Source of the DNA: Paraspadella gotoi
Lineage: Eukaryota > Animalia > Chaetognatha
Length of the DNA: 64,000 nucleotides
Reading direction: 5' to 3'
NCBI GenBank assembly: GCA_051294375.1
Contig: CM119265.1
Span: 16,684,005-16,748,004 of the forward strand
The notes under the pieces are model-generated. The model did not search any database and was not told the origin of the DNA. It saw nothing but the letters and a program-made list of their open reading frames with translations. The number at the start of each line of letters is the position of its first letter. The stretch's first letter is position 1. Made by a program: the position numbers and the translations under genes. Of the stretch, positions 1 through 56,786 are shown piece after piece.

Positions 1-391
1 CAAGAACGGCAAGTTTGTAGTTCTTACCAATCAAAAGTTTGCCAACTGACTCGATGAAGGTGCTCTTGCCGGCCCCGGGGGGGCCCGTCAGTCCAATCCG
101 AAATGACTTGGGGACGTCGAGATTGACGCGACGATTATGCTCGAGCACCATGGAAAGCAATTTTTTGGCATCAGCACGCTTGCGAGGGTGCACTGATTCC
201 ACCAAAGTGACACTGCGCGCGAGTGCGGCACGCTCCCCCCTAACGATACCCTCAAAAAGATCGTGGACACTTGGTTGTTTCACTTTGAAATGGGAAAAGT
301 TTGATTCCCACCGTCGAGCACAGATTGGGGTGTTCGGCAGTCCCTGATGAAATCGAAAAAAACGATTTGCCGGGAAGCAGATTTTCGACAT
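1..391 (-). CDS. MMAA: MMAA/MeaB-type mitochondrial GTPase (methylmalonyl-CoA mutase chaperone), 5' part; runs off the window start
   Basis: Not in the ORF track. Minus frame from ATG 391 reads MSKICFPANRFFRFHQG...GERAALARSVTLVES...SFRIGLTGPPGAGKSTFIESVGKLL, i.e. MeaB/ArgK signature, P-loop and an Arg-rich presequence. Confidence 0.9.
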   Translation of the reverse strand, partial: MSKICFPANRFFRFHQGLPNTPICARRWESNFSHFKVKQPSVHDLFEGIVRGERAALARSVTLVESVHPRKRADAKKLLSMVLEHNRRVNLDVPKSFRIGLTGPPGAGKSTFIESVGKLLIGKNYKLAVL

Positions 392-441
392 TTTTTAAAA
401 TCCTGTACATGTATATGACTATGAATGAGAATGAGATAGAT

Positions 442-1722
442 CTAGGTAAGTGTAACGTTTTTTATTTTTTCTAAAATCGTCCCTATGATCTTATTCAAGT
501 ACTGTTCGGTATTTTCATCTTTGATGAACGAGGGAAAAACGTTGAGTGTAAAATCGGGTCCAAAGCGCTCAAACTCGGAACATTCTGCAGGGACTTCTTC
601 GGAAATTTCTTTCTCCAAAATTGCAGCTGTCAATAGGGTCCAGCATTTGGCAGTATTCACGTGATTATAACCGCCTCCGCCTAAGACTAAAGTAGGAACT
701 GGGCAAAATCCTCTCAATGACTCCAAACAACGCCGCATGCCTAATGGAGTAAGATTAAAGGCGAGGTTGGGATCGCCGGAAATGCAATCAGCGCCGCACT
801 GTACGACGACGGCATCTGGTAAAAATTTTTTTGAGACTTCGCCGACTATTTTACAAAAAGTATAGACATATTTGTCGTCCCCGATTCCGTTTTTAAGCGG
901 AACGTTTACGCAGTGACCCAGACCCTTGCCGATACCCTCCTCGTCGACGCCGCCGGTGCCAGGAAAAAATCCCGCCTCAAATTTGTGAAGCGAAACCGTG
1001 AAGACCGAGTTAGTGTGCCGAAAGGCTTCTTGCACGCCGTCGCCGTGATGAAGGTCCAAGTCGATGTAAAGGATTCGATTAAAAGTCTTTGACAACTCGT
1101 GAACGGCGATTACGACGTCGTTTGCGTAGCAAAATCCCGAGGCTCGATCCCGGTGTGCGTGGTGCCAACCGCCCATCCAATTTATGGCGATACCGCACCG
1201 ACCTTGCGTAAGGGAGCGGGCAGCCGCTAGGGAAGCGCCGACGCAAAGTTGGACAAAATCAAACGTTCTCTTCGTCGGGGGACAGTCGTAGGCCAAACCG
1301 AAGTCCTCGCCGGATTGGTCGACGTCGTCGTCTTCGTCAGCGGCGTTTGAATCGCGTAAGTAATTGATGAATGACGAATCGTGAAAGGAAATCAATTCGT
1401 CGTAAGAAGCCAAATCTGGTTTAATGATCCTCGTCTCCTTCAGCAATCCGTAACTCTGAACGAGCGAATGGAGCAAGAGTGCTCGACCGGTAATTTGTAC
1501 CAACCCGTTGCACCGCAAAAATAATCGCTCGGAGAAGACGTAGCCGACTGATGATGGAGCTAGATAAGGTTTACTAACTGTGAGGGACGGTAGAAGGACT
1601 GGAGTGTCTCGAGAGTAATTTCCGATTTTTTTACGAAACCGCCCATCGAATGAGCCATTATTAGCAAGAACGTTTTCGTCGTCGTCGTCGGAATTTAAAT
1701 CGTATGCACTGCAATGGGACAT
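442..1722 (-). CDS. HDAC8: Class I histone deacetylase 8, intronless
   Basis: GLAYDCP, AINWMGGWHHAHRDRASGFCYAND, YIDLDLHHGDGVQ, GGGGY motifs; WxGGWHH is HDAC8-typical. Likely ATG 1722, directly after TTCCAG. Confidence 0.93.
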   Translation of the reverse strand: MSHCSAYDLNSDDDDENVLANNGSFDGRFRKKIGNYSRDTPVLLPSLTVSKPYLAPSSVGYVFSERLFLRCNGLVQITGRALLLHSLVQSYGLLKETRIIKPDLASYDELISFHDSSFINYLRDSNAADEDDDVDQSGEDFGLAYDCPPTKRTFDFVQLCVGASLAAARSLTQGRCGIAINWMGGWHHAHRDRASGFCYANDVVIAVHELSKTFNRILYIDLDLHHGDGVQEAFRHTNSVFTVSLHKFEAGFFPGTGGVDEEGIGKGLGHCVNVPLKNGIGDDKYVYTFCKIVGEVSKKFLPDAVVVQCGADCISGDPNLAFNLTPLGMRRCLESLRGFCPVPTLVLGGGGYNHVNTAKCWTLLTAAILEKEISEEVPAECSEFERFGPDFTLNVFPSFIKDENTEQYLNKIIGTILEKIKNVTLT

Positions 1723-1903: not shown

Positions 1904-2359
1904 TCACTTGCAGATGCCGATGACCCCGCAAGCCAGCCTGGCGCCAGCATTCCCTGTAATGAGGCTAAGATCATGGCCTCCTTTGCCAAGATCGTCGACG
2001 TCGGCGTGAACGACCACAGCTCGACCGACGATGCTGTTAGACCCTGTCAGCGATATTTTCCTGTCGGAAATTTTGACACGAGCGACGCCGTCTTCGCCGG
2101 CTTCTACGTTGCCGAGGTCACCGACATGGCGCTCTTCGTCCCCAGGGGCGCCATGGGTCTTGTCAGAGGGATTGAAGTGACCTCCGGCAGATGTGCACCC
2201 GTTAGTGTGGTCCCCGAATTCGTGGATGTGAAAGCCGTGCAGCCCGGGAGCGAGACCCTTAATCTCCCCGCTAACTTCGACGACATCGCCCGTCTGAGCA
2301 AAGTTAACCACACCTTTGACTTGCTCGCCGACGAGAACACAGACAGATTTTACAGACAT
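1904..2359 (-). CDS. SOD1: Cu/Zn superoxide dismutase, cytosolic, intronless
   Basis: [42 protein letters not shown]; ATG 2359. Confidence 0.97.
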
Positions 2360-2802: not shown

Positions 2803-5800
2803 TTAAGATTTAACATGTTCCAACATGCAGTGTTTTGGATTGCAATAAACGTGGTCGTAAGCTGGCAAACAATCGGTCAATGAACATGTCATTTCTTGCC
2901 AAGGTAAAACGTGAGCATTTGTCAAAATCTCTCCAGGCGTAACGTGAAAACGAATGGGAACGCGTGTAAGGCGTCGTTTCGACACGATATTACCTCGCGC
3001 CGATATCTCCACGTAGGGTACGAGCGGAAGTTCTTTGACACCTTGAACACGGTTAAATATTACGCTACCGCGCCGATCGCGTGCCGCACAAATTTCATCC
3101 AACTGGAAAAATCGCCACAAGGAATGGGAGGGCGAAACCGTGTCGGAATCAAACCCGATCGGCTTGTCCGTCCGTTTAAATGACTTATCGGGAGATTGCG
3201 AGGGAGTCAGAGATCGCAGAAGATCGGGAAAGGAGATTTTGTTTTCTGACTGGCCACTCGCCGGACTCGATTCTGCCGCGCGAGTTTTATTCCGTCGTCG
3301 CGAGCTGACGAATGGCGACTTGATGACATTTGAGAAAGAATCTTCGGAAAAAGGAGGTAATCGTTCTCCGTTTCCTTGAGCAGACGCCGCCACTGAAGAC
3401 TCTGCGTCGCCGCTACCACCGCGATCAACGCAGAGAGTCGATTCTCGGGAGGACAGCGATCTTCTCAACGGCGTCAAACTTTTAGACTTTCGTGAGCAGA
3501 GTTGTTTTTGTAACTTGCGCATCTTCCACAAACGAAAGGCGTCTTGGAGAACGACTGCAGCAGCTCGGACTCGCAGGAAGTGACGTCGATCTTTCAGTCT
3601 TCGAAAGAAATTGGTGATGATGGCGGCCGCGGCCTTAGCTCGTTCCACACCGCGCCTCACAACGGCGCCGCGGTAGTGACTTTGAACAGCGACTACGGCG
3701 CGTTTTACTTTTTCAAAGCGGCACCGCGCGAGATAGCCTCGAAAGCTGGCTTGAATAAGGACCGCGCAATTGATTCTCCGACGGTGACAGAAACGCCGCC
3801 ACGCACACTGAATGATGAAGGCTTTGTCGTGAAGCCTTTGCTCGCGACGCTCCTCCAAAGTTTGAAACTGCGTCTCCGACAAAAAAATTTTTGATTTTCC
3901 TGCCATAACGCGATCGGTTTCGGATTCAGAAAAGACATCTGTCATAATCGACATGACCTCAATTCGTTTAGGGTCTCTCAACATCGTTGAAGTTGGTTTG
4001 TTCACTGGACTATTTATCCGGGGCGGAAGTTTCGCTGGACTCCTCGCGGGACTTTTTACAGGACTTCTGGAAGGACTCCTGGAGCTGGAGAGACCGACAG
4101 GGGATGTAGTTTTTCTTTTCTGTGGCATCTTTAATCCCTCGTAGGTAACTCTCCTCTTACGGCGATGTCTAGCTACCGAAGTGATCCCAGTAGCCTCCGT
4201 TTCCTCGACCGACCCTGGAATAACGTCCGGCATTTCCGGCTTAAATTTTAGTCTTAACACCCGGTAGCGACGCAGAAACTCGTCGAAAGTGAGGCGAACA
4301 GGACAAAGACGTTTTGAAATTGCAACAGTTTCAAGGACGCCGGTGGCACACAGCTGCTGCCTCACCGTGGCGATCTCGAACATGGAGACGCCAGCGTTAA
4401 CGGGTTCCATGCCATGAAAGAAGCCAGGGTTCAACGGGGAGGGTTTGATGCAGCGGATGTAATGCGGGGTCGTCGCTCGGAGGTGTTGCATTAAAGAATC
4501 AAGGGAGGATTTAAATTTTGATAGGAGAGTCTGGCGACGGCTCTCACCTACAAAGTAAGGAAATTCATTGGTCGTTTTATAGGTAAAGTTCAATACAAAA
4601 CAAATAAATTTTCGATTAAAATATAACCTGGCAACAGGTTTGGATTTTCCCAACCAGCGAACATTTCTTTTAAGAACCAACTCTCCGACTCTTCGACCAA
4701 ATCAACGAGATCCTGAGCAACTTTGTCTCGATTTTTTTCCACCATATCTTCGAGGGAATATTCGACTTTGCCCGCGTAGTGAAAGACTGTGAAAGCCTCT
4801 TCTGGAGTTCGATGTCGGACGAGTTCAGGCGTTCGAATCGGCGAAGAGGTACCCGAGGGAACGCGTTTAAGGACTGGGCTGCTCAGATCTTGAATTCGTT
4901 GAGCCAATCGGAGATTATCAATGTCTCGGTTTAACTGACATTCCTCGTTTAGCATGCCTCAATGGAAAAACAAAAGAATTGTATTAAAATAATAAAGTAA
5001 ACAGCTAAATGAAAGTCTTACCTATAACACTGTCCGGACCTTTCTCCAAAGCTTCAAGACAAGGACGATTGTCGTTGTAATCAATATCGATCCAATCGAT
5101 TTCCTCTCGCCTGATATCTTCTTGTAATTGCTGCAAAATTGGATAGTAAAAATTGATGCTAGCTCCTCTAAAAAAAATAATTATAATACCTTTAGTTGTT
5201 AACACATATTTTAAAGCATATAAAAATAATTCAATTTTTACCTGCAAATATTGATGAACGTAAAGTTGCTGTAATTTTTCATTGGCAAAATTAATGCAGA
5301 GTTGTTCCAAACTGTTGTAGTCTAAGATTTCGAATCCGTAAATGTCAAGGAGACCGATGCGTGAAAATGTTTTTGTTTCCTTAGTTACGAGTGAATTAAC
5401 GTAGGCGATGATCCACTCGAATAGCCTAGTGTAGAGAAGCTTGCAGAGAGCGTCTCGTTTATGTTTACTATCTTCTACGGTGCAGCGGCCGATTACTGTG
5501 CTGGTTCTCTTCATTCGAGTCGTACTAAAAAAAAAAAACAAAAAAAAAAAAACGAAGCGCATTATGCAGATGTAAATAAGCGAAAGGTTCAGTTAGCAGT
5601 ACCTAAACTTTCTCGTCGTCAAGACAAAACGCAAAGCCTCTGGTAGCAACTTGAGCAACGAAGCGGCAGAGTCGAGTGCCTCATCGTCATTCTTCCTTTC
5701 TTTTTCGTCGGCGTCGTCATCCACAAAATCTATTTCGCCGAGATGCAAGATGGCGGCAAGGACGGCGAAAATTTCCCCGACTTGGTCTTCACTCATCTCG

Positions 5801-6985
5801 GCGTCGCGCATTGCTGCCAGCGTCGTCTCGAAATCTTCCGCGTCGGCTTCCGTTCTCAAAGAGGAGTTGCGCGCCAAACGAAATTTTTCGGCGATGTTTT
5901 CTAGACCAAAACGCCGCGCAAAACCTTCCTCGCCGCCACCGCTGGCCAGCAGCTGGTAGAAAACGTGAAAGTTTCTCTCTTTAGGCGCTTGCCGCACGAC
6001 GCGAGTGCTCTCCAGCAAATAGGTCTCCACTTTACCACCGAGGGTGAATGCGCCTCGGTCGAACTGAAGCTGCACAAATTTGCCGAACCGCGACGAGTTG
6101 TCGTTGCGCTGAGTCGAGGCGTTGCCAAACGCCTCTATTACTGGGGTTGAGGCCATCAGGTGTTTTCGAATCAGAAAAGCCGGAAAAGTTGCCGATGGGC
6201 AACCCGGTGAGCAAAAGCCTGGAAAAAAAGGAAAAAACGTTTAGTGGTTTAAATAAATAACTAACGACTTCAAAAATAGTCTACCAGTGTCTGGAGTGGA
6301 AGCTCGACTTTGATCCTCGTAATTAGAGGCATTTTCACCTCCGTTGCGGCCTCCAACAGCCGCGAGGTATTTCATCAAGTATCTCGTAGATTCAGTTTTT
6401 CCGGCGCCGGACTCGCCGGAGACGATCACCGATTGGTCTACCGATTTTCCCAGACTGATAACATTAATACGCTTTTAAAGATCTATCTAAAAAATAGTTA
6501 GCCTATTCATCGCACTAACCCGTGAACCATGCTGAAAAATGCCCACTTTGCAACAGAAAAAACGTGCGGGGCCATGGATTTGAGGGGACCGTCGTGAGTG
6601 TGATATTCCCAGATTCGTTTCGTTGAGTAGAGCGCGGGAAAATCGCGCAGGGGGTTGAGAGCTAAGAGCGCTACTCCGGCCCACGTGTAGAAGTTGCAGT
6701 TCTCGTAACGTGTCTCCAGACATTGTAACACTAACGACTGGTTTAGCGGCTGAAGGGTCGTCAAATCGTCTACTTTTGTCAGATCTGTGCCAGATACACA
6801 AACAAAAAAATATATAAGAATAACCGTTAAAAATTTAACGAAATTTTCCGATTTTTCTCAAACTTACCTGAAACTCGCAAAGAAGTCACATCTCGCCCAT
6901 CATACGCCTTATCACCCGAGGGGTTTTTCTTCTTCTTTGGCTTAGGGGGAGGTGGAGGAGGCATCGCCTTCGAACGACTGGACAT
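2803..6985 (-). CDS. MYO19: Unconventional myosin, probably class XIX (mitochondria-associated), multi-exon
   Basis: GESGAGKT P-loop, [42 protein letters not shown], several IQ motifs, short tail with RVPIRFH resembling the MYO19 tail. ATG 6985. Class assignment is less certain than the myosin call. Confidence 0.78.
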
Positions 6986-7252: not shown

Positions 7253-8130
7253 TCAAACACTTCTCTCTGGAGTGTTGATGTAGACTCTCTTGAAGGAATC
7301 AAATGCAATAAAGACGCAGGTCCTGACCACACCGCGGAGAATGTTGACGCCGGCGCCCTTCATCATCGACATGAAAGCCTCGTTCTTGAGGATCTGCGCG
7401 GCGCAATCAATGGATCCCTTGTACTTGACCGCCGGTGCCCGACGTCATCATCATGCGTCGACGAATTGTGTCGATGGGGTAGGACATCAAAGCAGCGGTC
7501 ACCGTGACACCATAACCCAAACAGAAGAACACCAAGAGACCGGCATCGGGGCCGAGAAGGATCGGCTTCAGAGAATCGTAGAGACCGAAGTACATCCCTC
7601 GGTAAACGAAGATGCCAACGCAGGAGATGACGAACCCGCCGTAGAGGCCTTGGATGCCGTCTTGCTGTACACGTCGATGAAACCCTTGTACTGACGTTCG
7701 CCGCCCTTGGCGTCATTGGCCAAATGCGTTCGGGCGAAATCCAACGAATACACGAACAAAAGAGACAAGGAACCGGCATCTTCCGGAGAGAATATTTGAA
7801 CCGAATTTGGTCACCTAAGAAGCGTCTATGGGGACGTTGAAAGCCTCCTTCACCTTGTCATTGAACGCGAAATTGAGAGCCGGCGCCGGAAAGTATCGCA
7901 GGCAATTGGCCATATTGCCGCGCCAAAGCGGGTAGACGTCATCGGTTCTGATGTGCGCAGTCGATCACACCCTTATAAGGTTTGTCAAGACGAACTTGTT
8001 TGATCATTTCATCTTGGTTTTGAACGAGCAGCTTGACTCTCTCGATAGGGGCGGAATTCGTCTTAGATAAGACAGCAGCAACGCCTGAGAGTGCGAAATT
8101 CTCAGCGAATACCAATTTCTTGTCGGCCAT
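7253..8130 (-). pseudogene. ADP/ATP translocase pseudogene, intronless
   Basis: [63 protein letters not shown] spread over different frames; about four frameshifting deletions and an in-frame TAG near 7816. Confidence 0.9.
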
Positions 8131-9674
8131 TTTAGAATGCGGTCTTTTCCCCTTAGAATTTTAAACAAATTGAATGTACTCAATAATTGAAAAAAAGAAC
8201 CATAATGATAATACAACTAACAGTTTAGGAAAACCGTTATGACGCAAAAAGACGATTAAAGCAACTGTTTAAAAATTTTAAGTCTTCCAACACATAAAAT
8301 GGGAACGAAAATATTTCTGCCTTCTTCAGCTTCCAGAATTTGTAAATTTACTAAATTTATTTTTTAACATTTTTTAAAAAAAATTTTGCAAATTGAAAAA
8401 AAAAAACGTACATGGTGACCATTTGTAACCTGTAAAGATTTTATCATTTTGAAAAAAGATTTATGAAAACAAAATGAATATATTTTTTTATGTATAGATA
8501 TAATATCCTTCAGTTTACTTTTAGTTGAACAGTGAGTGGTAAAAGTTATTTGGAAAATGACCTCCCTGATCGATTGCTCAATGTTTTTAAATAAAAAATC
8601 TGTCTTATTTTTCAGCACGATTTTTTAAAAAAATATTTAAAAAAATATATATCCCTATCAGAACATACAATTCTACTTTGTAGTCTTAACCCTCAACAAT
8701 AACGAATCATAAATAACCTTAATTCCATAACAAATTATCCTCTCCACCCTTTTCTGTTCAGACTTTTAAATATTTTGAAATTCTCAATAAATGACTTCTT
8801 AACAAGAATGAGGTCTAATATCTAATTAGAAAACTAAGGCAGAAAATAACTTTTAACTTTGTGTTGTATAGATGTTCCCTCTTTTTCCAGAAAACAACAC
8901 TAACGTCCCTCTCCCCATAACATTATAAAAGAATATACTATAAATCAAGAATATAATTAAATATAATATATAGTAAAATTTATTGAATTCTTACATATAT
9001 TTTAAAATTGTAATATAAAATTTATTCAAATTTATTAAATACTTACATTTATTTTACAATTTTAAAATTTAATTTAGTAAAACAAATAATCTTGCAATTT
9101 TTCAAATACTATATGCTAATTTTCATATTACAGTTAGAAATAATATTAAAGAAATTCAAACAAAAAATATTTGAATCGATATGAAACATTTTAAAAGATC
9201 TTGATGATGAGAAGCTTCCTACAAATGCACACTTTTACAATTTTCAATTATAAAAAATTGTAAAAAAGTATAATAACATTGACAATGTCACTAAAAATAG
9301 TGACCTATTCACCGCGACCACTCGCTGGACTCACCTAATTTAGTAGTGGGTAGAGACCATGCGTACGACAGCATGACCTAGGGTACACGACACACCAATA
9401 GTCACAAAATCATAAAAATGTATTCATCTTATCATAAAATGTATGCATCTTATCTTTATATATCTTTTTTAAAAATATTAAAATCTTTATACTTTTTTTT
9501 CTAGCGGCGGTCTCAAATGGCCACGACGTATTATTTCTTAACTTGAATATATATATATTACATATATATCTAAGTTCAATTTCATAATTAGAAACTGAAA
9601 ATATGCCGCGTGAAATATTATAATAATTTTTAAAATATATTTAATCTGTCTTTTTTATATCTTATAAATAAATA

Positions 9675-10474: not shown

Positions 10475-13400
10475 TCAAAATTTCTTAACCCTATCATCAA
10501 ACCCATATACTTTTCTATAAGCATCATTTTCAATCAGTATGGATTTTAAAATATCTATCGGTAAGTAAGTTGTCTTTATTATTTTTTCATTCCCCCCACA
10601 AAGCAAGGCGGGCATAAGCTCGTCGACGTCAACCTTTCCATGTTTCGCTATTGTATCTCTCATCTTTGGTGGAACTCCTCTTCTCGTCGTCGAAGTCACG
10701 TTTCTTCGAACGTGTTCCTCCGTTTCGCGCTTTCTACGTTCGAAGGTTTCGATGCATTGGTGTCTGCGATTTTGATGTTGATTCTGTAGCGTCTGAATTT
10801 GAGCGTCGTGCTTTCGTCGAAGTTGTGCCCCGACTCTGAACATGTACTCTTTCGGTTGGCGCTCAGCCTTGAGCCTATGATCCAAAAGGTGGACCTCGTG
10901 TTGCTGCTCCATTTGGCAGAGTTGAAGTTGAGCTTCGTACTCGGACTGGAAATGTTTGAGCAATTGCTTCAATTGAGCGTCCACGTCCTCCAACTCGCGC
11001 TCCAACACGCCGTCGACGCACTTCTGAGCTATGATTTCCTCGTCAGATTTCCTTTCGTCCGTCGTTCGTTTTCTCTTGCGCCCGACCCGTGCCCTCATTC
11101 CCAGCTCTGTCTCCGCCGAACGATACAAGGCGAATTCGTTGCGTTCAAGAAGCGACCGCCCCACTAAAAGGTCGCCGTTCTTTTTGAGCCGACGCTTGCG
11201 AAAGTTAGAAATGGTCAAGTTGTGATCTTGCTTGGGAAATTCGGCTAATTTCCACTTTTCCCTAACTAAACGAGACATCTCATCCTCGTTCTCGATTTTA
11301 ACAGTTTTTTTAGCCCCGTCCTCATCGTAAATCTGAATGACCTTTGGCCCTATTTCGGGAAGAATCTCCTCGACGATACTAAGTCCAGTATCACCTTGAT
11401 TCGAACCGAGTTCGTTCCATATTTTCGAATCCCAAGTTCCATCTCGGCGTAGGATCACACTAGTAGCAGAAGTCCTGGAAAGGATTTCGGCCACGAGCGC
11501 ATCAGTTTCGAACGTTTTCACACTTTTCCTACAAAGCGGGCAAGTCTCGTCCCCAATATTGACATTTTTAAAAATAAATAAGCTGGAAATGTCAAGAGTT
11601 TCCACATGCAAGCAGGAATTTGCTTTAACTGGATGATGTAACCTTTCCAAGCTGAGGGGACAGAGCAGACTCAAAATATAATCGTCCGAGTCTTGGTTGT
11701 TTTCAAACCATTTACGAATAAATGAGGATTGCTCGCGAGTATCCCATCGAAAGATTGCATTAACTTCCGACTCTGCTACCCTGATAACCCTCGGACCCTT
11801 GAAAGAGGTTCTCGAATCGGATTTACAACCTATCGTCTCCTTTTCTAACGGCCTTTTTTCTGCGTCCTCGAAATCTTCAACGTGGATTCCATCGGAATCT
11901 GAATTTATCGCTTCGACGGACGGTGGACCAATGGATAATATGTCAGGTTCCACCGCAATGATTGCCTTCGAAGATGAGGCGGCCGGGGATTTTTTGCCTT
12001 CTGAAGTTACAACGGGAGATGTTGCATCTGACGAGGGTACTTTTAGAGATGAGGTTACTTCTGTTGCGTAGGCACCTGCTTTGGATACTTCGGTAGCAAC
12101 GTCAACACATGAAGAAACAACAGACGAGGATAAGATAGGCGATTCTTTGGGAGGCACGGTTGCGGTAAGGGGGGCAATGTCGGTTGAGGCTAAATGGGAA
12201 TCTGCAGATACAGGTTTTCCCGAGTTCGCAACGAGCGAGTCAGGATCGTTCCGAAATTCTCCCAAACAAATGACGGATTCGTCAGACTGGGAGTCCTCAA
12301 CGTTTAAAACGGCATCGAGAAACTCTGGTTCAATATCAGGATTTTGCACGACCGTCTTTTCGCCTGGATCTTCTTTAATTATACAAACCTCTTTGTCTTT
12401 TGGTGGACTTAAGTCCCTGCTTACCCCAGGGTTTTTTTCGACGTCTTCAACGCCGTCATCGTCAGTCTCGATCCCATCAGAATCGTCCCTGTCGGCGGAT
12501 GATTGAGGATAATTCGACCTAAGGCACAAACGCTTTGTCGGAGGGGAGTTGTCTTCTCCCAAGAGCCTTCTAGAGATTTCGTCGAAATCTTCTTCGGAAA
12601 AGCAATTAACGGGGTCTCCATCGCCTCCGCTTCCTAAGTCTCCATAGAGCAGATCGTCTTCTAGAATTTCTTCGTCGGATTTACCTTGGTTGTACCCTTC
12701 AAATATACTTGAAGTGTAGCTCTCCTCCGCGTTGGAAGGCGGAAACTGGCCAATCTGAGTTTCCTGTTGCGGCAAGATTCGGCGGTTTTGGTCCGGCATT
12801 GCATCGTCGATCGAAGTGTCGTTGAACGAAATCGGTCTGAAAGGAATCCGTTTGAAACGGCGAGATTCGGTATCATTTTTTGCGGCGACAATGGGCGTAG
12901 AAGTGTAATTCGGCTCGCGTGTTTCGCAGAAAGACTCGCATTTCGCAGAAGTTTCCACTGACAGCAAGTCGAGCTCTTCGTTTGGCTGCTCAGTATTGAC
13001 AATGGCGAACAGTTCCGGGGCCGCCGGTTCGGAAGAGGACGGAATATTTACCGCTTCCTCTTTGTTAATAGCATCCGGCTTGACGCTATCGTTGGAGCAA
13101 TCGACCTTGAGTTTGACAGTCACAGAATTTTCAGCTTTCGTAGTGAAAACCTCTGGGGACAGTGCAGGAGGCGTTGTACTTCGGTCGCTCGCCAGATTGT
13201 TGACATTTATCACTGTAAACCACAAAATCGTTAAATTTACAAATCTTTCTACAATTCAAATATATATCGTACGTATATTGTATATCAATAATTTACCAGT
13301 AGCTTGTCCATCAAAGGATGAGTTTTCATCATCGCCTTCGTGAAGAGAAGGATCATCCTCATACAAAAAATCGAGATCATTCTCAATATTAATCTCACGA

Positions 13401-23192: not shown

Positions 23193-26215
<3,023 letters not shown>

Positions 26216-43008: not shown

Positions 43009-44836
43009 TCATTCGCAATAATTGGACTTAATAGGGACGATATTTTGAGATACATCCCGATAATGCAAACTATTTCGTAACGCTTGCGCGGCGTGGTTCA
43101 ACTGCATAGCAGCATCCGGATGAGCATTTTGGTGCTGTAGAAGGGCACATTCTCGTTCAAGCATGTTGCCTACACCTTCTAAGAGTTCCAGGAATCCGAA
43201 AGACAGCGCTGCCCGACGTAGTCGGTTTAATTCTTTATAAAAATTTTGTAATTTATCGGGCAACTTTCTGGCGTGCCGGAGAATTTTCTGAATGTCCGTC
43301 TGGAGGCGGTCAGGTTTGATCCAGACGACACAGTTTTGAGAGTAGCTCCTCTTCTCCTGGACTTGAACGGGAAAGGGCGATTTGTCCTCGTCTTCGCCGT
43401 AAGGATTCTTATCCAGAAAATCGGCTGCGGGAACAAGTTTGTCGAGGTCTCCGAGCCAGGGCAGAGTGTGCGTTCCGGGTTCCAGGAGAGAAATCATAAG
43501 ATTGGACTTTTTTTTGCTGTTGGCCCAAGAGTAAATCATGCCGTACCACTCGTCACCGGCGATGACCAGGGCCACTTTATTCTCACGACGAAGACTCCCG
43601 TGCAACAGGACGGTAAAGGAGGGAGTCTTGGCTTCTGCTTCGACCTGGTCTGGGGTTAAGGCAACGGCGATCGAGACGCTATCGTTTTCTTTTCCCGGGG
43701 ATGCGGCGCCGGACGAGGAGGAAGCGGCCTCGGTTTTTTGTGGAATCGGAAGGATGAGGTGCCTGATTGGAATTGGAACAGTCAGGTGATGCGTTTAAAT
43801 GCGAACTAATTTATTTCACCGGCAGATACCTAGACACGCTCGGCGGACTCGCGATGTCTCCAGTGTTAACGAATCCGATGATGTCCAGAACAGATGAAAC
43901 GTCCTTCCTCGTCTTTTTGAAATCAAATTGTTTTTCAAATGTCAGAGGCGGAGGATAAAGTTGTATCTTGGCAACGAGGTGACCACATTTAAGAGTTCCA
44001 TAGAAGGGGGAGAAATATTTGTCCGCGAGCTTAAGAACGGTCTGTTGGACGACCTTAGCATTCAGTGTCGGCGAATCTGGTCTGAAAACGCTTCCCTGAC
44101 CACCATTCATTTCGATCAACTTCTCGAATAGCGGAACAGTTTTGTCTAAGTAGGATTCTTTTTTAGGTGTCAGCAACACAAAGTGTAGCTTGGATGAAAA
44201 CGGTAAGGGTAGAGGAGATCTGATGTGTACACCGGGGAATAAAATTAAGGCTGGTTTAATTTTAAAAGAATTTGTTCATTAACTTGCCTGTTTTGATGAG
44301 AAGCTCCATCAGGATTGTAAAACGCTGAATTTCCTGTTTTTATCCACTTTTCAATAAGACTCGGTAGCGAGGAGGATCCTATGCCAGGTCCTCCGTCGGT
44401 AAAAACAATTACCTTGATTTTTATTTCATTTTTATTTCATTTTATTTGGTAAATTCAACCCATCCAAATTTTCTTAAACTACCTGAACGGGCGTGCCCGA
44501 ATCCCAGTCGTCGGTGACCGATGCAGCCGCTCCGATCAGCCCTGCCTCCAAGCACGTCTTGTCCGCGACGACGCAGCCTTTGAGTTTGTCGCGGATGAGA
44601 CCGTAGTCACGCGTGAATGTTACTAGGGACTCCCACAAGGACGAAAACTGAAGCAGTGAGACGTACTCTAACTTGCAGTTCGTTGTTAAATAGTCGAGGA
44701 GTGTGTTGACGCCGGTCACGGCGAGCGAGAGCACATTGGAGCGAGACATTGCGTGAGGCGACGCCGGATCGGCGGATGTGTCGCGCCACCCCCGCGCCAT
44801 AGACAGTGAAACGTCTAGCAGGATCAACGTCGGCAT
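43009..44836 (-). CDS. INTS14: Integrator subunit 14 (VWA9)
   Basis: MPTLILLDVSLSM, NCKLEYVSLLQFSSLWE, VFTDGGPG, VLLHGSLRRE, WYGMIYSWANSKKKSNLM, FYKELNRLRRAALSFGF. Confidence 0.93.
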
Positions 44837-45704: not shown

Positions 45705-48700
45705 TCAACGAACAAAAACGTCGTCGTAGTGATCCAAAAGCAACAATGTGAAGTTATTAATATGTTGCATAGCCGATAAATTCGCCGGTGCGCCTGTCAA
45801 GAGTCAACTTATGGATAACAAAAAGTTAAAACCTTGGCACTTTCGTTTTCGTCGTGATTAAATGAGACAACATTCTAAAATATTACCCAATGACTGAAAA
45901 TTATATATACATTATAAGAATAGAATTTAAAAAGTAAACAAAACGAAAAAAATGTTAGCTATGTATTAAAAAAGATATGAAAATACTAAAAATCAAAATA
46001 TATATAGAAAAAAAAAATAGTTTAAATATTTACTGATCAGAAATAGTCGAGACAACCTTACCTTGAGGCCATAGTAAATTGGGTCCAAAAACTATGGACA
46101 AGTTAGAAGACGTCATTTTGTTAATGTGTGACTGCGCGACAACTTCAACTAAAAACGTCATAATGAACTTGAGGACCTGGTAGTTCTCTTCTGGCAGACG
46201 AGTTGTGATTAGTTGGCTCGCGACCTTATATTTAAAGACGGATCTTTCATCAGTCGAGTAAAAACAGAATATTAACTTGCTCTTTACTTTGGTGCAAATA
46301 TGATTGTAAACTCGGAATAAAACAAATTAAACAAACCTTCACTCGGACGTCCCTGTCCATGTCCCAGAGGGAGAGGATGTGATTGTAAAGTTCGAAGGTG
46401 AGCAGGGGTTCAGGAAGTTCCCTCAAAAAGGTTTTCAGAATCACGGCGGGAATGTGCACGTCACCATAGGCAGTGAAGTCCACGGTCTCCCCTTGGTCGA
46501 AACGCGCTTGGACCTCTTTCACGTCCTTGGCGTTTGCGGATCGTCTAACGAAAGAAAAATTGAAAATATGATGATGCTGTGGCGGTATATTCACACCACC
46601 TCACGTCCACCATCCGTCAGCCAAATCCATTGGCTCAGATGCTTAGTCTATTACAGTGGTATTTACAAAGGTCAACGTTTTGACCACAAATAAACTGGGG
46701 GAAACGAGCGGGGTCAGGTTGTTATGGTCAAGTGGTTTGACCGAGGTTGCATGTTCTTCATGTTCGTCCACACATCCCCCCACCAAGCCTTTGACCGGGT
46801 GGGGAGAAGGCTTGAGAGAAGTTATTGAGCTGCGTCGTTGTTTTCTTCGTCATCTTCCGGCGGTTGAAGCATTGTCGGAAGGACGTTAAACAGATCGGGA
46901 ATGGATGATGATTGTCGACGAGCAACTTGGGGCATCATGGATGACGCGAGAGGCGCCGCTTCCGTTTCCGGAGGCGGTGCGACTTCGTCGTTGACGGTTG
47001 GAGCCGCTACTGAAGCGCGACGCGGGCGACCTCGTGGGCGTGCCCGCGGTGGTTCAGGAGGAGCGGCTTCGTCGGTGACGGCAGGTTTAATCTTGTTTAA
47101 TCTTTTACCTCCTAGGGTAACCGCGCCAGTGACTGGAGGCGTCACTGAGGGTCGGAAGCCCCCAAAGCCAACAGTGAGATGCCCCATCCCAATGGGCATC
47201 ACAGGCAACCCGGCTGTTGCCATAAGTGGTGAGCCCTACTATCGAACACGCAACCTTTTCAGGGTACGCTACGACAAACGCCTATGCCCCTGGGGTACGC
47301 TACGCCTATGCCCCCACAACTCGCGCTCTCTCTCTCCCACTATGGTAGCAGTCTTGTCAGACACCTCTCAGGCTTGAGGAACCTGAGTGATGTCTTGGCC
47401 CGGGGATCCTGTGGCGGTATATTCACACCACCTCACGTCCACCATCCGTCAGCCAAATCCATTGGCTCAGAGGGGGAACACACCATCCCAGGCGTAGTTT
47501 TCCTTCCACAGTCCTAACGACTTCCCTCTGCGTTGGCAAAGCGAGACCGTCCTAGGGTAACCGCGCCAGTGACTGGAGGCGTCACTGAGGGTCGGAAGCC
47601 CCCAAAGCCAACAGTGAGATGCCCATCCCAATGGGCATCACAGGCAACCCGGCTGTTGCCCTAATGCGATCTTTCAATGAAAAATTTTAACGACATAAAA
47701 CCTGAATATTCCCTCGCAGTCGAGAGCGTGGCACTGAAGGTAAGAGATGGTCTGCTGGACGACGGGTGGTACTGCTTCCCCCTGGTGCTCGCGCAAAAAT
47801 TTGAGCGAGACGCGGAACTGCTGCGAGTCCAAGGGGGCGAGGAATGTCGCGGTCGTTCGAGCAGGGACCACTGAGGTAATAAAGTTGTACGTAGACGTAG
47901 AGTAAAACTCCCCCAAAATGAATAACAGATATCCAACCTGGTCTGTATCGTTGTACTAATGCTCGGTCATAATCGAGAACCTCCTTGGGAATGACTAGTT
48001 GGTCGAAATGCAGATGCTCGTTCAATTCGTGAAGGTAATTCATGTAGATGATCTTAAATCATAACGTAAAAGAACTTTCAAAAAAGGCCAATGTAAAATC
48101 AAATATTTATTCTATTCAGTATTCTGTGATTCCATTCTGATGACTAAGAAAATTTTTTAATCCCAAAAATTCCCTCAAACTAACTTTTCTCCCAAATTTG
48201 GCCGAAATGAGGGGACGGAATAAGGTGAGCACAACTTTGACGAAATTAGAGGGATGCACGATCATGAGCTGCTTCAAGTTCTTTTTGTACTTTCGATCTG
48301 AAGCGTAAAGCAAAGCGAGATATCATCGTAAACATAAAGACACAGAACCCCTAGAATCAACAAAATCAACTCGCCTAGATCGTAATAAAGATCCTTGAGC
48401 AATGACAAAGGCGGCTTGTTATGGCTCCTCATTCCGAAATGAAAGTAAACGATGATGTAATCGTTGATGACGTAATGGTCTAACGTGGCCTTCAAATAGC
48501 GGAGCAATTTCCGGTGGTCGAGAAGCTTGTTTGACGGCAACTTGCAGGCAGAGAAGGTGATGACCTTCCGCCCAAACTTGTCGTCGCCCGCGACCTCAAA
48601 GATGCTGAAGCGCGATATGTCGTCGTAATTCTCGGTTTGCGGTTCCATCGCCGCGTCGCTCTCGAACTCTAAGCGTCCTATTGAATTTATAAAATTAAAG

Positions 48701-50030
48701 CTCTAAATACAAAACGGTGAAAAACAAATGCTGGCGTGAAAAAACGCACCCGGAGTCGCCAGCGCGGATTCAAAATCTTCCTCGGCCAGGTAATCGGGTA
48801 GTGATTCACCGCTTTCTGAAGCCCCGAAGCCCAAATCGGAGGAGCCAGCCCCCAAGTCACCTTGCACGAATCCTCCCCCAGTATCTTCCATCGAGGCTAA
48901 ATGATGTCAAGAATGAAAAAAACATTTTCAAAATATATATACCTTCAAATAAACAGAGCGTGCGGAAAAGAGAAAGCATGAATGTGTGAAACACACTTAC
49001 CTGAATTTTCGAAATTTTCAAAGACCGTGTTAGGACATTATCAAACGAAAAAGGTACAACACTGATTTGCTACACTGCACAAGGCACAACTCATTAATTT
49101 AGCATCCGAATTCCGGCTTAAATCGGAAATGATCAAAATACAAGACTCCTCTTTTTCGAAATATCGAAATGGATAGCGAAGTTCAGATAATTCATATATT
49201 CATACAAAAATCATTTTGCTTACGTTTAAAAGTAAGGTAGACTTATTTTAATTTTAACTTTAAAATTTGAAATAAAATTATTTGAAAAAATGAAACCATT
49301 TCCTCTGGTAAAGGTGATAGCGTTTACAGTTTGAAAATTTCCTCTCATCAATGTGCAACTGATGTGACAAGAAAACGTGCGAGGTGGGATAAATCATTTC
49401 TATTAAAAAAGACCTGATAAATCTAGATCAGTGACATCGAATTCGAGTTGAGGCTCATGATCAAATTGTGAGAAGAAAATGGCCTCTTCCGGAGTTCCCT
49501 CATGATAGTTGTTGAATTCCATGGAGGCGTTACGATCGTTCCAATCTAATTTCTTTCCATAATTTTCCTCATTGGCTCCATCACCATCATAGGTTGCATT
49601 CTAGCAAAATTGAATTATTGAAATGAAAAAAAAATTATATCCATATTCATCTGATTCCCACAAATATCAGAAATATAAAACTCCTAGTTAGAAGACTCTC
49701 CCGCCATTTGCGCTGGAATTATTAAGGTACGGGATCGAATACACATGTACAAAGTCCAAACACTAAATTCCGGCCTGGGGCCCAGGAACACTTGTTATTA
49801 AAGTGACGCATCGGTGCCGGTAAACGCATCCTACAGTCAGATCCGAGATCCCCAGAGCATGGCAAACTGACGGAAAAGTTTTCTGGGACACAACAAGACA
49901 CCCCATCTAGTGACGCTCTCTTCACTATCACATTATTGAATCAAAAAACCACCTGATCTTCGTTTCCACTGGTACTGAATAGGTTGTTGTGACTGTCGTT
50001 TCTCAGCGGCGGATTCATTTTATTATTCAT
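45705..50030 (-). CDS. BCH/CRAL-TRIO plus RhoGAP protein (ARHGAP1/8, RhoGAP68F type)
   Basis: [79 protein letters not shown]. Phase-compatible upstream exons 49953-50030 and 49414-49600 (EPQLEFD). Confidence 0.88.
46577..47660. mobile_element. GC-rich insertion with split direct repeats A-B-A-B in RhoGAP intron
   Basis: A (63 bp) 46577-46639 = 47409-47471; B (~111 bp) 47110-47221 = 47550-47660; multiple hairpins; no RT or recombinase ORF. Confidence 0.75.
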
Positions 50031-50508: not shown

Positions 50509-52346
50509 TTATAACACAGTTGACAAATAGTTTAAATAACCAGGGGATCTGTTCGTCACAAAATCAAGTTCCATGATGCCCTGTTCGGTTTTGACCGCTT
50601 CCAACTGGATGATTCTCTTATCGATGTAAAATTCGACGGCGCTAAGAAACTCAGCTCGGTCAAAGTAAGGCACTCGTAAAGGATAGAAGGGTTCGACGGC
50701 GGCGAACCCTTCGCCACCGAGAATCTCGGGTGGACTGACGCATTTCCTGTCGAATGGTTTCTTCGTCCTGTTCATGATCCAAGGATCCTCAACAACGTCG
50801 GCGTCGACTGAGGCGACAACGGCACCGCCGCTCCAATCAGAACGAAGCATCTTCTTAAAATTGTGGACTAACGACACGGTATCAGGAGGGACGAATACTT
50901 TGGGACTTTGGTCTGGACGAGGCAACGTCGTCGGAGTCCAAAACAGGTTGATTCCGTCGAGGGAAACGAGGATGTTCGTGGGCTGGGGGAGGACGCGGCG
51001 AGTTCTTCGCTTAGAGCATGATAACAACTCGCGAGGAATATTAAAATGATAGCATTACCCGGGAACAGTGGGTGGAAAGAAGTCGCAATTCTCTCAAGAT
51101 CGCTCCAATGCAATCCGAAGAATAACGAACCCTGTCGAGCCCAAAATCTATCAATGCGTTCAAATGTGATCCTATTAAAAAAAAAAAAACTTATGAGGCA
51201 TCCTGATATCGGAAAACAGAGCGCTACAGCTTAATATTTGAAGCTACAAATTTTTATATTTAAACGCAGCGAAATTGTATCGTTTCGGTCGATTAAAAAC
51301 GAAGTAAGAATTATCTTTCTGATCATCACCTTCGGGCGTCTCTTCTCGCATCGTCCACTTGTAAGTTTTTGTGGTGACGAGATCCTTCCTCGTCGCTAAA
51401 ATGACGGCGTTTTGAACACGAAAGTTTCTCAACCAATCGGCGCCCACATAAGGGAGGTCGATACGGCGGTCGTTCCATGAAGAGATTTCTGTCTGTTTGT
51501 CCCTCTGATAATTATAAAACCATTCAAGAGGCCAAGGCATTTGGACAATAATCCAACCTATCGCGAATTAATTCAAATTTAAGTTTTCCTTTAACTTTTT
51601 AAGTAATACGATTACATTTATTCTATTAAAAAATGGTGTTCGGTAGAAATCTAAATAATCAGGTACTATGTATTATTTTATTCGTGATTTCAAAGGTAAT
51701 TGAAGATAGGATTAATCATTAAAGATAGCTATTACCTATGCTTTACTATTGCAGCTTTCTATCCATATTAACATTGTTATTTATTTCAGAATACAAATTT
51801 AGACGGAGCTTTCCAAAAAGAAAAATTAAAGGGGTTTTGGGTATTAAAACAAATCCAATTTCAACACTACTAGCCTTTAGATGACGCGTAGTGAATTACG
51901 CTGTTGAGCGTCATCGTCTTTCCGGCACCGGGGCTTCCGTAGATCAAGTACCTTCTAGCAGGCTGCTCATAATCAGCCCGAGTCAAACAATCTCGCAATT
52001 CCAGGAATGGTCGACGCACCATAAAAGCAGCCTCGTTGACCGCATTTATTTGTTTTTGGAATTTAAGGTCGAGGCCATACTGAAATATTTGGTTGTACTT
52101 GTCCATAGGAATTGTGTAAAACAGTCCGATGTCGGTTTCGTTAAATTCGGCAGGGTCTCTTTTCGAAGTTCGAAAAACGACCGACTTCCTGGGAAGATTA
52201 AGGATTTCCGACTCCCGAGCATTTTGACGAGAAGCAAATAACGAACTGGATAGGCTCAGGTATCGACTGATCACGTTCAATTTGGAGATTCGAACAATGT
52301 TTTCTGCGAACACCGGAACTAGTGAAAATGTCATTCTTACTGCCAT
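50509..52346 (-). CDS. DAP3: Mitoribosomal protein mS29/DAP3
   Basis: EAAFMVRRPFLEL, RYLIYGSPGAGKTMTL, DLPYVGADWLRNF, YKWTMREETPEG, ILVSLDGIN, DWSGGAVVA. Confidence 0.9.
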
Positions 52347-52481: not shown

Positions 52482-52988
<507 letters not shown>

Positions 52989-53228: not shown

Positions 53229-53734
<506 letters not shown>

Positions 53735-53893: not shown

Positions 53894-55619
53894 TCATCGA
53901 GTCCGAAAAATCTTCAAATTATTGTCCGCTCCTCCGGTCAACATCAAATCATGAATGGACCAATCAACGGCGAGAATCTTATCCTCGTGTCCGCTCATGT
54001 TAAAAAGAGGGGCGTTAACGCTCCGGAGATCCCAGAGTTTGGCGACAGCGTCGTAGGAGCCGGAGAGCAAGAGATGCTCGTTGGTTGGCGACCACGATAC
54101 GGAGGAGACCCATCCTGTGTGATGAGTCAAAGAACTTTTGACGACTGCTCCCTCGGTGGATCGAGGATCGTAGATTCGCACGTGGCGATCCGTAGAACTG
54201 CCGGCTAATAAGTTGTTCAATGGCGAGAAAGAGATGTCCGTGAAAACCTTACTTCCTACAAGTTAAAGAACATTCAGGAATTTAACAATCACTGCCACAT
54301 CAAATATTCCTAAAATATAAAAATAATTACTAAAAATATTCTATTTATTTGAGTCAGTTATTAACACTAACAGACAATTACAATACTTTTCAAACTTTAC
54401 AAACTGACCTTGAATGAGTCGTTCTTCCTTAGCCGTTTCGATGTCCCATATCTTTATAGTGTGGTCCCAAGAGGCTGAAGCGACCTTGGGTCCGTCCATC
54501 CACTGGAGGCCCGAAACGCCCTCGTTGTGAGCGGTCAGGGTCATGAGTGGCGTTCTCGTGTGGAGCCTGGCTTTATCTTCCTTGGCGTCGACTTCGTCAA
54601 TGGTCTTGGATCGCTTGAATTTCTTCTTAATTTCCTCCTCCTCTCCCGTTCCTAAGGTTTATCACTTAATTTTCTTCAAACCAAAGTACAAAGAACGCCT
54701 CAATTACCTGGCTCAGGTTCCAAACTCGTGGACCAAATTTTAAGAGTTTTGTCCCAAGAACCAGAGAGGAATCTTGACTTATCACTATTGACACAGACGG
54801 CGTCTACACTGCCAGAATGACCCCGGCATACGTGCATACGTTCTACTGACGTTTTGTTGAAATCCATTGCCCAAATGATAAGAGTCTGGTCGTGAGCACC
54901 ACTAAAAAAGGTAAATGAATTGGGGGGTTAAGTTTGACTCTACTTAATACAAATCGTTACCAGCACATAGTCGTGGTATAACTAAAAATAATTGTACCTG
55001 ATAAAAGAAGAAACGCCATCGTTAGTTACGTTAATCCAACCAAGGGATTTTATTGCACCGGAATGACCAGGAATAGTTAGAAGTTTTTCGCCATCCGTGT
55101 TCCACACGTTGACCGTGTTGTCGTAGCAACCACTCAAAATATACCTGACATCATCTAAGAAAATGATAACACTGTGCCGAGGAAGTGGCGTGGACGTTAT
55201 TCGCCGACTCACCCCTTGTTTCCGACGACGGCGGCCACCCAATCATCGTGCACCAAACTGTCGTCCGGCTTTGGCGAGGGAAATTTCTCAACATATTCGA
55301 GTTCTATCACAGTTTCGGTGGAGAGGTTTTTGTCGACGAAGCACTGTGACAAAGGGACGCGAAGCAGCTCGCCCTCAAGAAGAAAGTCAAACTCGATGAA
55401 TCGAAACTCCGCGTCTTCGCCGGAAATGGCGCTTTCCTCCTGTTCTGCGGCGAATTTTTCCTTCAAAAGACCGTTGATGAGGTTACTAAGCTCGGGAGTT
55501 TCCAGCGCGGCGGAAACGGAAAAAGGCGAATCCGAAACGGCATGCTGAGATTGCTTGGTAAAAAATTTGACTTGGACGTGTGACGCACAGACCTCATCTT
55601 TGGGAGGGTCAACTTCCAT
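53894..55619 (-). CDS. WDR12: Ribosome biogenesis protein WDR12/Ytm1 (NLE domain plus WD40)
   Basis: VQVKFFTK, EFDFLLEGELLR, TETVIELEYVE, HDDWV, ILSGCYD, SASWDHTIKIWD, DRHVRIYDPRSTEG. Confidence 0.94.
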
Positions 55620-55748
55620 TGTTCAATCGGTATTGAAGCTAAATTATAGGAAATACAATGATAGGAATAAAAACAGAAAGTCGTTACAAAGTATTATAAA
55701 AATTAGCACCTTGATAAAATTAAGATGAAATAGGGTAAGATAACACAA

Positions 55749-56786
55749 CTAAGGAAGTTGACTATTTCCTCGGTGACAGCACTGAGAAGGCGGAGCGGTC
55801 CAATTGTAATCGTATGAAAGTCGAGAACGAAACTCTCCCTCCTTTCCACCACATATCGAACCAGTCCATAAAAGATTTTTGTGTTTGAGCCGAAGTTGTT
55901 CCAACGACTGCTTGTGGGTCACCAAGTAAGCCGTGAAGCATCCTCGAGATTTAAATTCTGTGTCGAATCGCGGGTCATGAACCCGACGAACGTCTAACGG
56001 AGCCAACCATGTCCCCATGGAAACGTCTTCGTTAAAGAACAGGCGGAGTTTCCGGGCGTTTTTTGCCACAAACTCAATGAGGCTCTCCGAGATTACGTAG
56101 CCGCCACCCAGCGCGTAAGGCAGATAGAGGTCGCAAAGATTCCACGTCTTATCCGACCATTTCCCTTTTTTAAAGGGTCTGGCTCGGCCATCGAAAAATC
56201 CCCAGTAAAGCCTGGGATGAGGATCCGTATTGGTCTTCAGTTCATCGACAATGGCGTCGATTCGAGCGAATGAGTCGTCGTCCATTTTGAGGACGTAATC
56301 AAAGCGAAGATTTGCGTGGACCCAGGCGTACATCCACAACACCTTTCTAGTCAGGTTTGCGTAAGAATCGACAAGGTTCTCCAGGATCAAGAGGTCACCG
56401 TATCGTTCAGATTCGATCGTCAGTTCCTCTTTTGCGGCGGTTGTTAAACCGGCCCCACCGACCACAAAAAGAGTGAGCGAGTCTTTTGGAGACGTCGAGC
56501 CATCTCGCAGGGTCATCCACGTATTTCGAGCAGTGTTTCTCTCTTCTAACTTGCGAGGAGCGCTGATGACGCAGACCAAAAGAACGACGTTTCTCCCGAA
56601 GAGCAACGACGAAGCGCTTCCAGCTGCGTCCTCCAAATCCGGAATTACAGGGAGACGGGACAGAGTAAAGAAACGGAGCGAAAGAAGAAAGGTTAATGGG
56701 AGAATTAAGAGCAATATCAACTTTTTGGGGAACCGTCTGAAGAAAACGGCGAGAACCAAAAGTAGATTTCTCCATAGCTGGGGCAT
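55749..56786 (-). CDS. B3GALT6: Beta-1,3-galactosyltransferase 6 (GT31), intronless
   Basis: Type II TM anchor, DSYANLTRKVL, YVLKMDDDSFARID, LYWGFFDGR, LCDLYLPYALGGGY, EDVSMGTWLA, HDPRFDTEFKSRGC. Confidence 0.94.
   Translation of the reverse strand: MPQLWRNLLLVLAVFFRRFPKKLILLLILPLTFLLSLRFFTLSRLPVIPDLEDAAGSASSLLFGRNVVLLVCVISAPRKLEERNTARNTWMTLRDGSTSPKDSLTLFVVGGAGLTTAAKEELTIESERYGDLLILENLVDSYANLTRKVLWMYAWVHANLRFDYVLKMDDDSFARIDAIVDELKTNTDPHPRLYWGFFDGRARPFKKGKWSDKTWNLCDLYLPYALGGGYVISESLIEFVAKNARKLRLFFNEDVSMGTWLAPLDVRRVHDPRFDTEFKSRGCFTAYLVTHKQSLEQLRLKHKNLLWTGSICGGKEGEFRSRLSYDYNWTAPPSQCCHRGNSQLP

Follow-up and report, generated by a model that had tools for sequence, protein, structure and literature searches.

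A 21-gene one-strand array in the arrow worm Paraspadella gotoi, probably an operon array resolved by spliced-leader trans-splicing

The gene array described here occupies the minus strand of a 64,000-nucleotide (nt) stretch of the chaetognath Paraspadella gotoi (GenBank assembly GCA_051294375.1, contig CM119265.1, positions 16,684,005 to 16,748,004 of the forward strand; hereafter the window), from position 56786 to the left window edge. It comprises 21 protein-coding genes and a pseudogene of an ADP/ATP carrier (ANT), and is probably an operon array resolved by spliced-leader (SL) trans-splicing. The direct observations are co-orientation, short gaps, RNA running unbroken through ten genes, and a single case each of an SL tail, a cis intron crossing between genes and a genomic SL relic. 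Transcription of this directional array of 21 housekeeping genes would yield one long polycistronic pre-mRNA or a few of them, from which 3'-end cleavage and SL trans-splicing would release the single mRNAs.

Six-frame translation together with Pfam searches confirmed the placement of all 21 genes and the ANT pseudogene on the minus strand, as proposed in an earlier sequence-only reading. In order of transcription, the loci are a galactosyltransferase gene (B3GALT6-like), a WDR12-like gene, RPS20a, RPS20b, DAP3, a RhoGAP gene (ARHGAP1/8-like, hereafter ARHGAP), INTS14, a POU gene, THOC1, XAB2 and SDAD1, followed by a coiled-coil gene, a TMX2-like gene, MED20, an unnamed open reading frame (ORF), Haspin, an SP-RING gene, the ANT copy, myosin, SOD, HDAC and an MMAA-like gene. 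Pfam identified 19 of the 22 minus-strand loci by name or domain, with RPS20 present twice, and gave no informative family for the coiled-coil gene (26215) or the ORF at 20384; the labels B3GALT6, WDR12, ARHGAP1/8, TMX2, CCDC186, MYO19, HDAC8, MMAA and POU class II go beyond the Pfam names and are our presumed assignments. The recomputed stop-to-ATG gaps were identical to the earlier values in 21 of 21 cases (129, 159, 241, 135, 478, 868, 323, 708, 119, 128, 158, 301, 194, 15, 127, 319, 2344, 267, 443, 181 and 50 nt), with a median of 194 nt, 12 of the 21 being shorter than 250 nt and 16 being 330 nt or less. Co-orientation and short intergenic distances, by which operons are recognised, were both found in the array.

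The chance of such co-orientation, formerly given as 2^-21, had been overstated. Since RPS20a and RPS20b are tandem paralogues and the ANT copy is a retrocopy, 20 independent loci are left, with p = 1.9e-6, or about 0.04 genome-wide over ~21,000 possible starts. On the plus strand, 65 ORFs were scanned with Pfam and the only matches were pieces of one OATP gene (32126-34022) between SDAD1 exons, in agreement with the single intron-nested gene expected on that strand. Beyond 57.1 kb, none of the 14 ORFs tested on both strands matched Pfam. An ordinary compact genome in which genes have independent promoters, trans-splicing is absent and the run is due to chance or to an assembly artefact draws on this ~4% genome-wide chance under random strands and on the loose resemblance of the leader 9-mer described below to T-rich genomic sequence upstream of 50448. 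Against it, that 9-mer is identical to the ends of published SLs and sits at an AG boundary, the DNA independently contains an SL relic, RNA contigs are collinear with the assembly across junctions at 99% identity or more, and a Spadella bacterial artificial chromosome (BAC) shows the one-strand pattern as well (PMC2481426). This explanation was considered largely refuted and is barely credible.

The earlier extension of a single unit to all 22 loci was not upheld, since the ANT copy was inserted by retroposition into an AT-rich gap of 3.5 kb. Once this copy is removed, SP-RING and myosin are separated by 3,489 nt of AT-rich DNA and the run divides into 17 genes (B3GALT6 to SP-RING, 46,312 nt) and at least four genes from myosin on. 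A strict 250-nt rule applied to coding coordinates gives blocks of 5 (6 via an SL site), 4, 4 and 3 or more genes. The likely units would be the 17-gene, 46-kb block, in which the gaps of 868 and 708 nt perhaps contain internal promoters, and a second block from myosin on; a single transcription unit of 17 or more genes is possible, if doubtful.

RNA was represented by assembled unstranded contigs of one public run (X1), which contained 0.66 of the region's words. Contigs were aligned over 37200-57199 (four runs) and 49940-57600 (X1 alone), corresponding to 9 of the 21 junctions; the runs X2-X4 gave short or low-depth matches only and did not count as evidence. Introns of the GT-AG and GC-AG types are spliced out in X1 contigs, which identifies X1 as RNA, and the zero X1 cover of a 317-nt DAP3 intron shows that DNA background was not the cause of the spacer cover. 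All nine tested junctions were RNA-covered, the 868- and 708-nt gaps included, and the uncovered spacer bases belonged to two spliced introns only. A single contig crosses from stop to ATG at five of the nine (B3GALT6-WDR12, WDR12-RPS20a, RPS20b-DAP3, INTS14-POU and THOC1-XAB2), contigs are linked by 30-nt overlaps at RPS20a-RPS20b and ARHGAP-INTS14, and the remaining two, DAP3-ARHGAP and POU-THOC1, have an upstream contig that extends 11 and 22 nt, respectively, past the point where the downstream contig begins, the two contigs staying unjoined. Contigs thus cross or link seven of the nine junctions, and a spacer intron is spliced, but contigs do not equate to single precursor molecules. The best-supported block is B3GALT6 to XAB2, ten genes with gap-free RNA. 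For the nine-gene block from THOC1 to SP-RING proposed from sequence, RNA support was gained for the THOC1-XAB2 junction and for that junction only.

The spacer intron is a 71-nt GT-AG intron (55639..55709, minus strand) wholly within the B3GALT6-WDR12 spacer. It is spliced in RNA (joint 55638/55710), joining the B3GALT6 3' untranslated region (UTR) to WDR12 exon 1, and here a cis donor within the upstream 3'UTR may capture the acceptor in place of the leader. Fully spliced contigs that pass through several ORFs, spacer intron included, are also what stable di- or polycistronic mature mRNAs would give, with B3GALT6-WDR12, INTS14-POU and MED20 plus the next ORF never separated, translation by re-initiation or leaky scanning, and SL at some genes. 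INTS14-POU is one unbroken contig at flat depth and the 15-nt MED20 gap lacks an AG, both in favour of such mRNAs. Graph assemblers, on the other hand, lose short leader tips wherever the graph offers a read-through path, so that hidden SL starts are expected; the gene after MED20 could use an acceptor within the last MED20 codons, and SL sites were seen or inferred at four genes. Mature polycistronic mRNAs of this kind were considered very improbable.

The evidence for trans-splicing was found at ARHGAP, whose contig opens with nine letters, TTGTTTAAA (RNA strand), joined directly after genomic ...TTTTAACAG (...TTAACAG) at 50448 on the minus strand. This SL acceptor lies 60 nt past the DAP3 stop, and the DAP3 contig extends 11 nt beyond it. 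The nine letters are the last nine of all SL forms 2, 3 and 4 in Table 3 of PMC2481426, and their length equals that of the longest common suffix of these forms in that table; an assembly graph would stop at a 9-nt common suffix if several SL variants were used. A chance match for this 9-mer was estimated at ~3e-5. Within the 64-kb window, TTGTTTAAA has one copy in the DNA, 42 kb from 50448 and inside the ANT relic, and the leader letters are absent from the DNA upstream of ARHGAP, as is required of a spliced leader.

SL addition at an unpaired acceptor was read as letters for this one gene, and we infer it for THOC1 and RPS20b. At 41356 (minus strand), the THOC1 contig aligns from the boundary CTTTAG/ATG with nine leftover 5' letters (172 of 181 aligned), which points to the SL acceptor of THOC1; at 53078 (minus strand), 28 nt beyond the AATAAA of RPS20a (53106), a contig begins directly behind CCTTAAAG, at the presumable SL acceptor of RPS20b. 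Both sites were derived by depth arithmetic that reproduces the tested depth bins. The B3GALT6 contig (3107 nt) starts directly after genomic TTTTTAG at 57093 (minus strand), without leader letters, and this is the likely SL acceptor of the first gene. Free contig 5' ends fell right after AG in four of five cases (p ~2e-5 at an AG frequency of 0.043), and the lack of a shared G at contig starts is consistent with competition between a leader that ends in A and an AG acceptor. Upstream of the first acceptor, a depth-8 contig (57144..57522, minus strand) may represent an outron; at 57522 it starts with 30 letters absent from the window and unlike the SL, which could stem from an upstream exon, an allele or a chimera.

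In the proposed operon array, RNA polymerase II (Pol II) would start upstream of 57.5 kb and read through successive poly(A) sites, and the RNA of each downstream gene would be capped anew with a leader whose last letters are AAA. The acceptor for this leader would coincide with the 3' end of the preceding gene or be placed even further upstream. Upstream RNA was found to reach or pass the next acceptor at three junctions (as RNA ends, not as mapped poly(A) sites), for which reason the ~100-nt spacers of C. elegans type had to be given up; the combination of a ~100-nt spacer and an operon-specific SL2, characteristic of C. elegans SL2-type operons, does not describe this array. At such tight junctions, one precursor may give just one of two mRNAs. 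AATAAA or ATTAAA occurs in 12 of the 21 spacers (the ARHGAP spacer having been counted from the wrong stop), and poly(A) sites are therefore not mappable from sequence. Resolution by SL trans-splicing, as originally suggested, gained support from the SL tail at an intergenic acceptor, the SL relic at ANT and the continuous RNA at nine of nine tested junctions.

The SL relic (8160..8186, minus strand) agrees with the 3' part of chaetognath SL2.0 in 24 of 27 letters by sequence comparison, and its three mismatches in 27 were reached by 0 of 100 shuffles. It ends in TTGTTTAAA and stands directly 5' of the ANT copy (7253..8130, minus strand; Pfam), which is intronless and multiply frameshifted. 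Owing to the SL relic at its head and the lack of introns, this copy is most readily interpreted as a trans-spliced mRNA that was retroposed; neither a target-site duplication nor a poly(A) tail could be made out convincingly at it. An SL-bearing ANT mRNA would have been retroposed into the 3.5-kb gap between the two blocks. In dinoflagellates, genomic SL relics mark retroposed mRNAs (available parts of PMC5585692 and PMC6050394), which the ANT copy resembles, differing in that it is a single decayed pseudogene in an animal. Compared with Table 3 of PMC2481426, the 9-nt tail and the 24/27 relic both match the phylum-specific chaetognath SL. SL genes have been located in the 5S cluster (PMC2566580, seen in part), and an Rfam scan of the window gave no match at E<=1.

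Monocistronic SL-trans-spliced genes were weighed as a further explanation, in which each gene or small group would have its own promoter inside the preceding last exon or 3'UTR, the outron would be removed by the SL, and co-orientation would avoid collision. About half of the P. gotoi genes are trans-spliced and 18% are operonic, so that most trans-spliced genes are not classed as operonic (PMC12460157, as far as available). Moreover, contig depth changes in steps between neighbours (207, 1023, 617, 228, 443, 146, 217 and 171), the gaps of 868, 708, 443 and 3,489 nt have room for promoters, and the SL-tailed contigs are unjoined to the upstream contigs. Nevertheless, one acceptor follows the DAP3 stop by 60 nt, another comes 28 nt behind the AATAAA of RPS20a, and two gaps measure no more than 15 and 50 nt, so that such promoters would repeatedly need to sit in coding exons. 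A cis intron links the B3GALT6 3'UTR to WDR12, and depth steps are normal for operon mRNAs too, contig depth being a poor measure. Such separate promoters were considered unlikely, with a larger share of the probability than the mature polycistronic mRNAs.

Several observations weigh against the operon array. A single SL tail was read as letters, over 9 nt, the three other sites being contig starts or the outcome of arithmetic. No separate SL-started contig was found for WDR12, RPS20a or DAP3 (X1, 49940-57600), nor for INTS14, POU or XAB2 among the contigs listed, and no X1 contig crosses either SL-tailed junction by 31 nt or more. The RNA evidence consists of unstranded assembled contigs from one run of one study, aligned at 9 of the 21 junctions, the other 12 lying outside; a contig that spans two genes is no proof of one molecule, and genes started separately would look the same if their UTRs overlapped. 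An acceptor position weight matrix built from 19 introns performed no better on 20 spacers than on shuffles (combined p 0.71) or on the opposite strand (p 0.65); its top sites in their spacers include the RNA-supported 50448 and 53078. An SL is no proof of an operon, because about half of chaetognath genes are trans-spliced and 18% are operonic (PMC12460157, in part). Additionally, the XAB2 tree contained no chaetognath reference protein.

The closest match to the XAB2 protein was 83% identical, followed by hemichordate, annelid and brachiopod proteins at 69%. In a rapidly computed tree with 37 rows, for which 36 out of 120 matches had been chosen for taxon spread and which had no chaetognath, rotifer or nematode row, the window protein and the 83% match shared a long branch outside the sampled arthropods, trochozoans and deuterostomes. 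A search with the RPS20 N-terminus gave weak matches only, none of them named. No named chaetognath protein was present among the matches to XAB2, RPS20 and the ORF at 20384. CpG was not depleted in the DNA (observed/expected 1.27). The leader match made a chaetognath origin very likely; an early-branching nematode, considered at first, was dismissed when the tail proved to agree with chaetognath SLs.

The minus-strand genes of the RNA-covered block are the galactosyltransferase gene (55749..56786; intronless coding sequence, PF01762), the WDR12-like gene with NLE and WD40 domains (53894..55619; Pfam, introns from RNA contigs), RPS20a (53229..53734; PF00338, RNA contigs), RPS20b (52482..52987; Pfam, RNA contigs), DAP3/MRPS29 (50509..52346; PF10236, RNA contigs), ARHGAP with CRAL-TRIO and RhoGAP domains and a 5'UTR intron at 50290-50140 (45705..50030; Pfam, RNA contigs), INTS14 (43009..44836; PF20504/PF19435), the intronless POU-homeodomain gene (42065..42685; PF00157/PF00046, RNA contig), THOC1 (38526..41356; PF11957) and XAB2/SYF1 (35557..38406; Pfam and protein similarity). 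Two of the 21 RNA-supported introns are of the GC-AG type (51874-51558 and 48374-48298, minus strand). Both RPS20 paralogues keep a 5'UTR hairpin, TCTGACTCACCG...AGTCGGTCAGA (53806-53765 and 53062-53009, minus strand), amid diverged flanks, with one compensatory pair and z values of -3.8 in copy a and -0.4 in copy b; an allele at 53057 changes an A-U pair to G-U. Judged by sequence, the hairpin is a possible autoregulatory element. The ARHGAP intron at 46545-47701 contains a repeat of 440-nt period with very high X1 depth (bin means 8,900-17,600) and back-jumping joints, a related piece of which lies at 21028-21084; it showed no Rfam match and no hammerhead core, and its fold was not unusual (z -1.6).

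Further along the minus strand follow SDAD1 (26374..35428; 5' exons inferred, SDA1 Pfam matches at 30823-26377), the long coiled-coil gene (23193..26215; ORF, presumably CCDC186-like), the TMX2-like membrane thioredoxin gene (21437..22891; PF00085), MED20 (20400..21242; PF08612), the uncharacterised conserved ORF (19359..20384), Haspin kinase (13803..19231; PF12330) and the SP-RING (zf-MIZ) gene that ends the 17-gene block (10475..13483; PF02891, below the curated cut-off). The multi-exon OATP transporter gene lies antisense in an SDAD1 intron (31434..34251, plus strand, ends approximate; Pfam), so that a read-through transcript would traverse it. The 15 nt without AG between the MED20 stop and the conserved ORF (20400-20384) mark a candidate true dicistronic mRNA, or else an acceptor within the last MED20 codons. 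This ORF has a stretch which we take to be P-loop-like, and received no name from Pfam or protein similarity, its single homologue (P0138) being itself unnamed. The second block contains the MYO19-like myosin (2803..6985; PF00063/PF00612), Cu/Zn SOD (1904..2359; PF00080), the HDAC8-like histone deacetylase (442..1722; PF00850) and the MeaB/MMAA GTPase (1..391; PF03308), which continues past the window edge. Among the repeats, a 237-nt element occurs at 18473-18709 and 58720-58956 in opposite orientations, 90% alike, with a presumed B-box-like stretch that would suggest a short interspersed nuclear element; related elements with terminal inverted repeats, resembling miniature inverted-repeat transposable elements, lie at 9672-10253 (SP-RING/ANT gap) and 29562-30062 (SDAD1 intron). 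Degenerate TTAGGG-like repeats were found upstream of the array, at 60709-60942.

Operons of C. elegans hold up to eight genes, and hybrid Caenorhabditis operons are explained by internal promoters. Kinetoplastid directional clusters consist of tens to hundreds of nearly intronless genes with universal SL addition. The present array is like them a long one-strand array, apparently resolved by SL trans-splicing, and is unlike them in its cis introns, its antisense nested gene and the trans-splicing of only about half of chaetognath genes; this comparison rests on the window and one published Spadella BAC. In Table S5 of PMC2481426, 19 of the 24 rows for Spadella cephaloptera BAC 35A21 are plus, four are minus (rows labelled transposon) and one is blank; every one of the 14 named non-transposon genes for which an orientation is given lies on the same strand, over ~120 kb, and the available text remarks that the other genes share one orientation. 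This suggests that long directional clusters are phylum-wide in chaetognaths. The same source describes the two-gene operon RPS14-PCNA, whose poly(A) site and acceptor are 3 nt apart. For P. gotoi, the accessible part of PMC12460157 gives no operon-specific SL, operons defined by a 250-bp rule and a longest operon of nine genes, with ribosomal, ubiquitin and proteasome genes; ubiquitin and proteasome genes are not in the present array, whose gene set differs. The array shares with the chaetognath operons so described the SL 3' end, the housekeeping, ribosomal and mitochondrial genes, the near-zero distance from 3' end to acceptor and the one-strand runs, whereas continuous RNA extends here over ten genes and sequence suggests 17 in 46 kb within a 21-gene run. 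Neither an acceptor overrun by upstream RNA nor a cis intron in a cross-gene spacer was found described in the available portions of PMC12460157 and PMC2481426.

Operons of Ciona contain up to 6-7 genes, mostly two (PMC2760879, PMC7986045), and a review states up to 11 for tunicates (PMC4122922, Oikopleura), each source being available in part. As in tunicates, neighbouring genes have little DNA between them, or none, and one unspecialised SL is used; the tunicate SL differs, the phylum is another and the maxima are smaller. Caenorhabditis operons are similarly polycistronic housekeeping clusters, and those of C. briggsae reach seven genes, with SL1-type operons lacking an intercistronic region and hybrid operons receiving SL1 and SL2 (bioRxiv 10.1101/2021.09.24.461604, in part). 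Unlike the C. elegans SL2-type, with its specialised SL2 and ~100-nt spacers, chaetognaths are without an operon-specific SL (PMC12460157, in part). No animal operon of at least 17 genes was found in the literature searched, in which coverage of subscription papers was thin.

The mechanism is known, and it is the array size that exceeds the published maxima found (nine genes for Paraspadella and as many as 11 for tunicates), making this possibly longer than any reported animal operon; part of it may be in the operon table of PMC12460157. Animal operons have been thought short (2 to ~11 genes), and the chaetognath maximum of nine came from a 250-bp cutoff. We tentatively propose that arrow worms have kinetoplastid-like directional clusters of housekeeping genes, and that in this array Pol II transcribes no fewer than 17 intron-bearing genes (46 kb), and possibly 21 or more (>57 kb), as a single unit, passing every poly(A) site, with SL acceptors overlapping upstream 3' ends. 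If true, the single unit would be roughly double the size of the longest animal operon on record, and annotation by a distance cutoff would have split the array. Animal Pol II would then evade termination over tens of kb and many poly(A) sites in a 17- to 21-gene array while cis introns are spliced. The overlapping junctions of 3' end and acceptor, together with the spacer intron that competes with the leader, offer natural tests of the order of cleavage, cis-splicing and trans-splicing, and SL relics on retrocopies allow trans-splicing to be detected and a contig to be assigned to its phylum from DNA alone. With a 17- to 21-gene array, our picture of chaetognath genome organisation would shift towards the trypanosome model.

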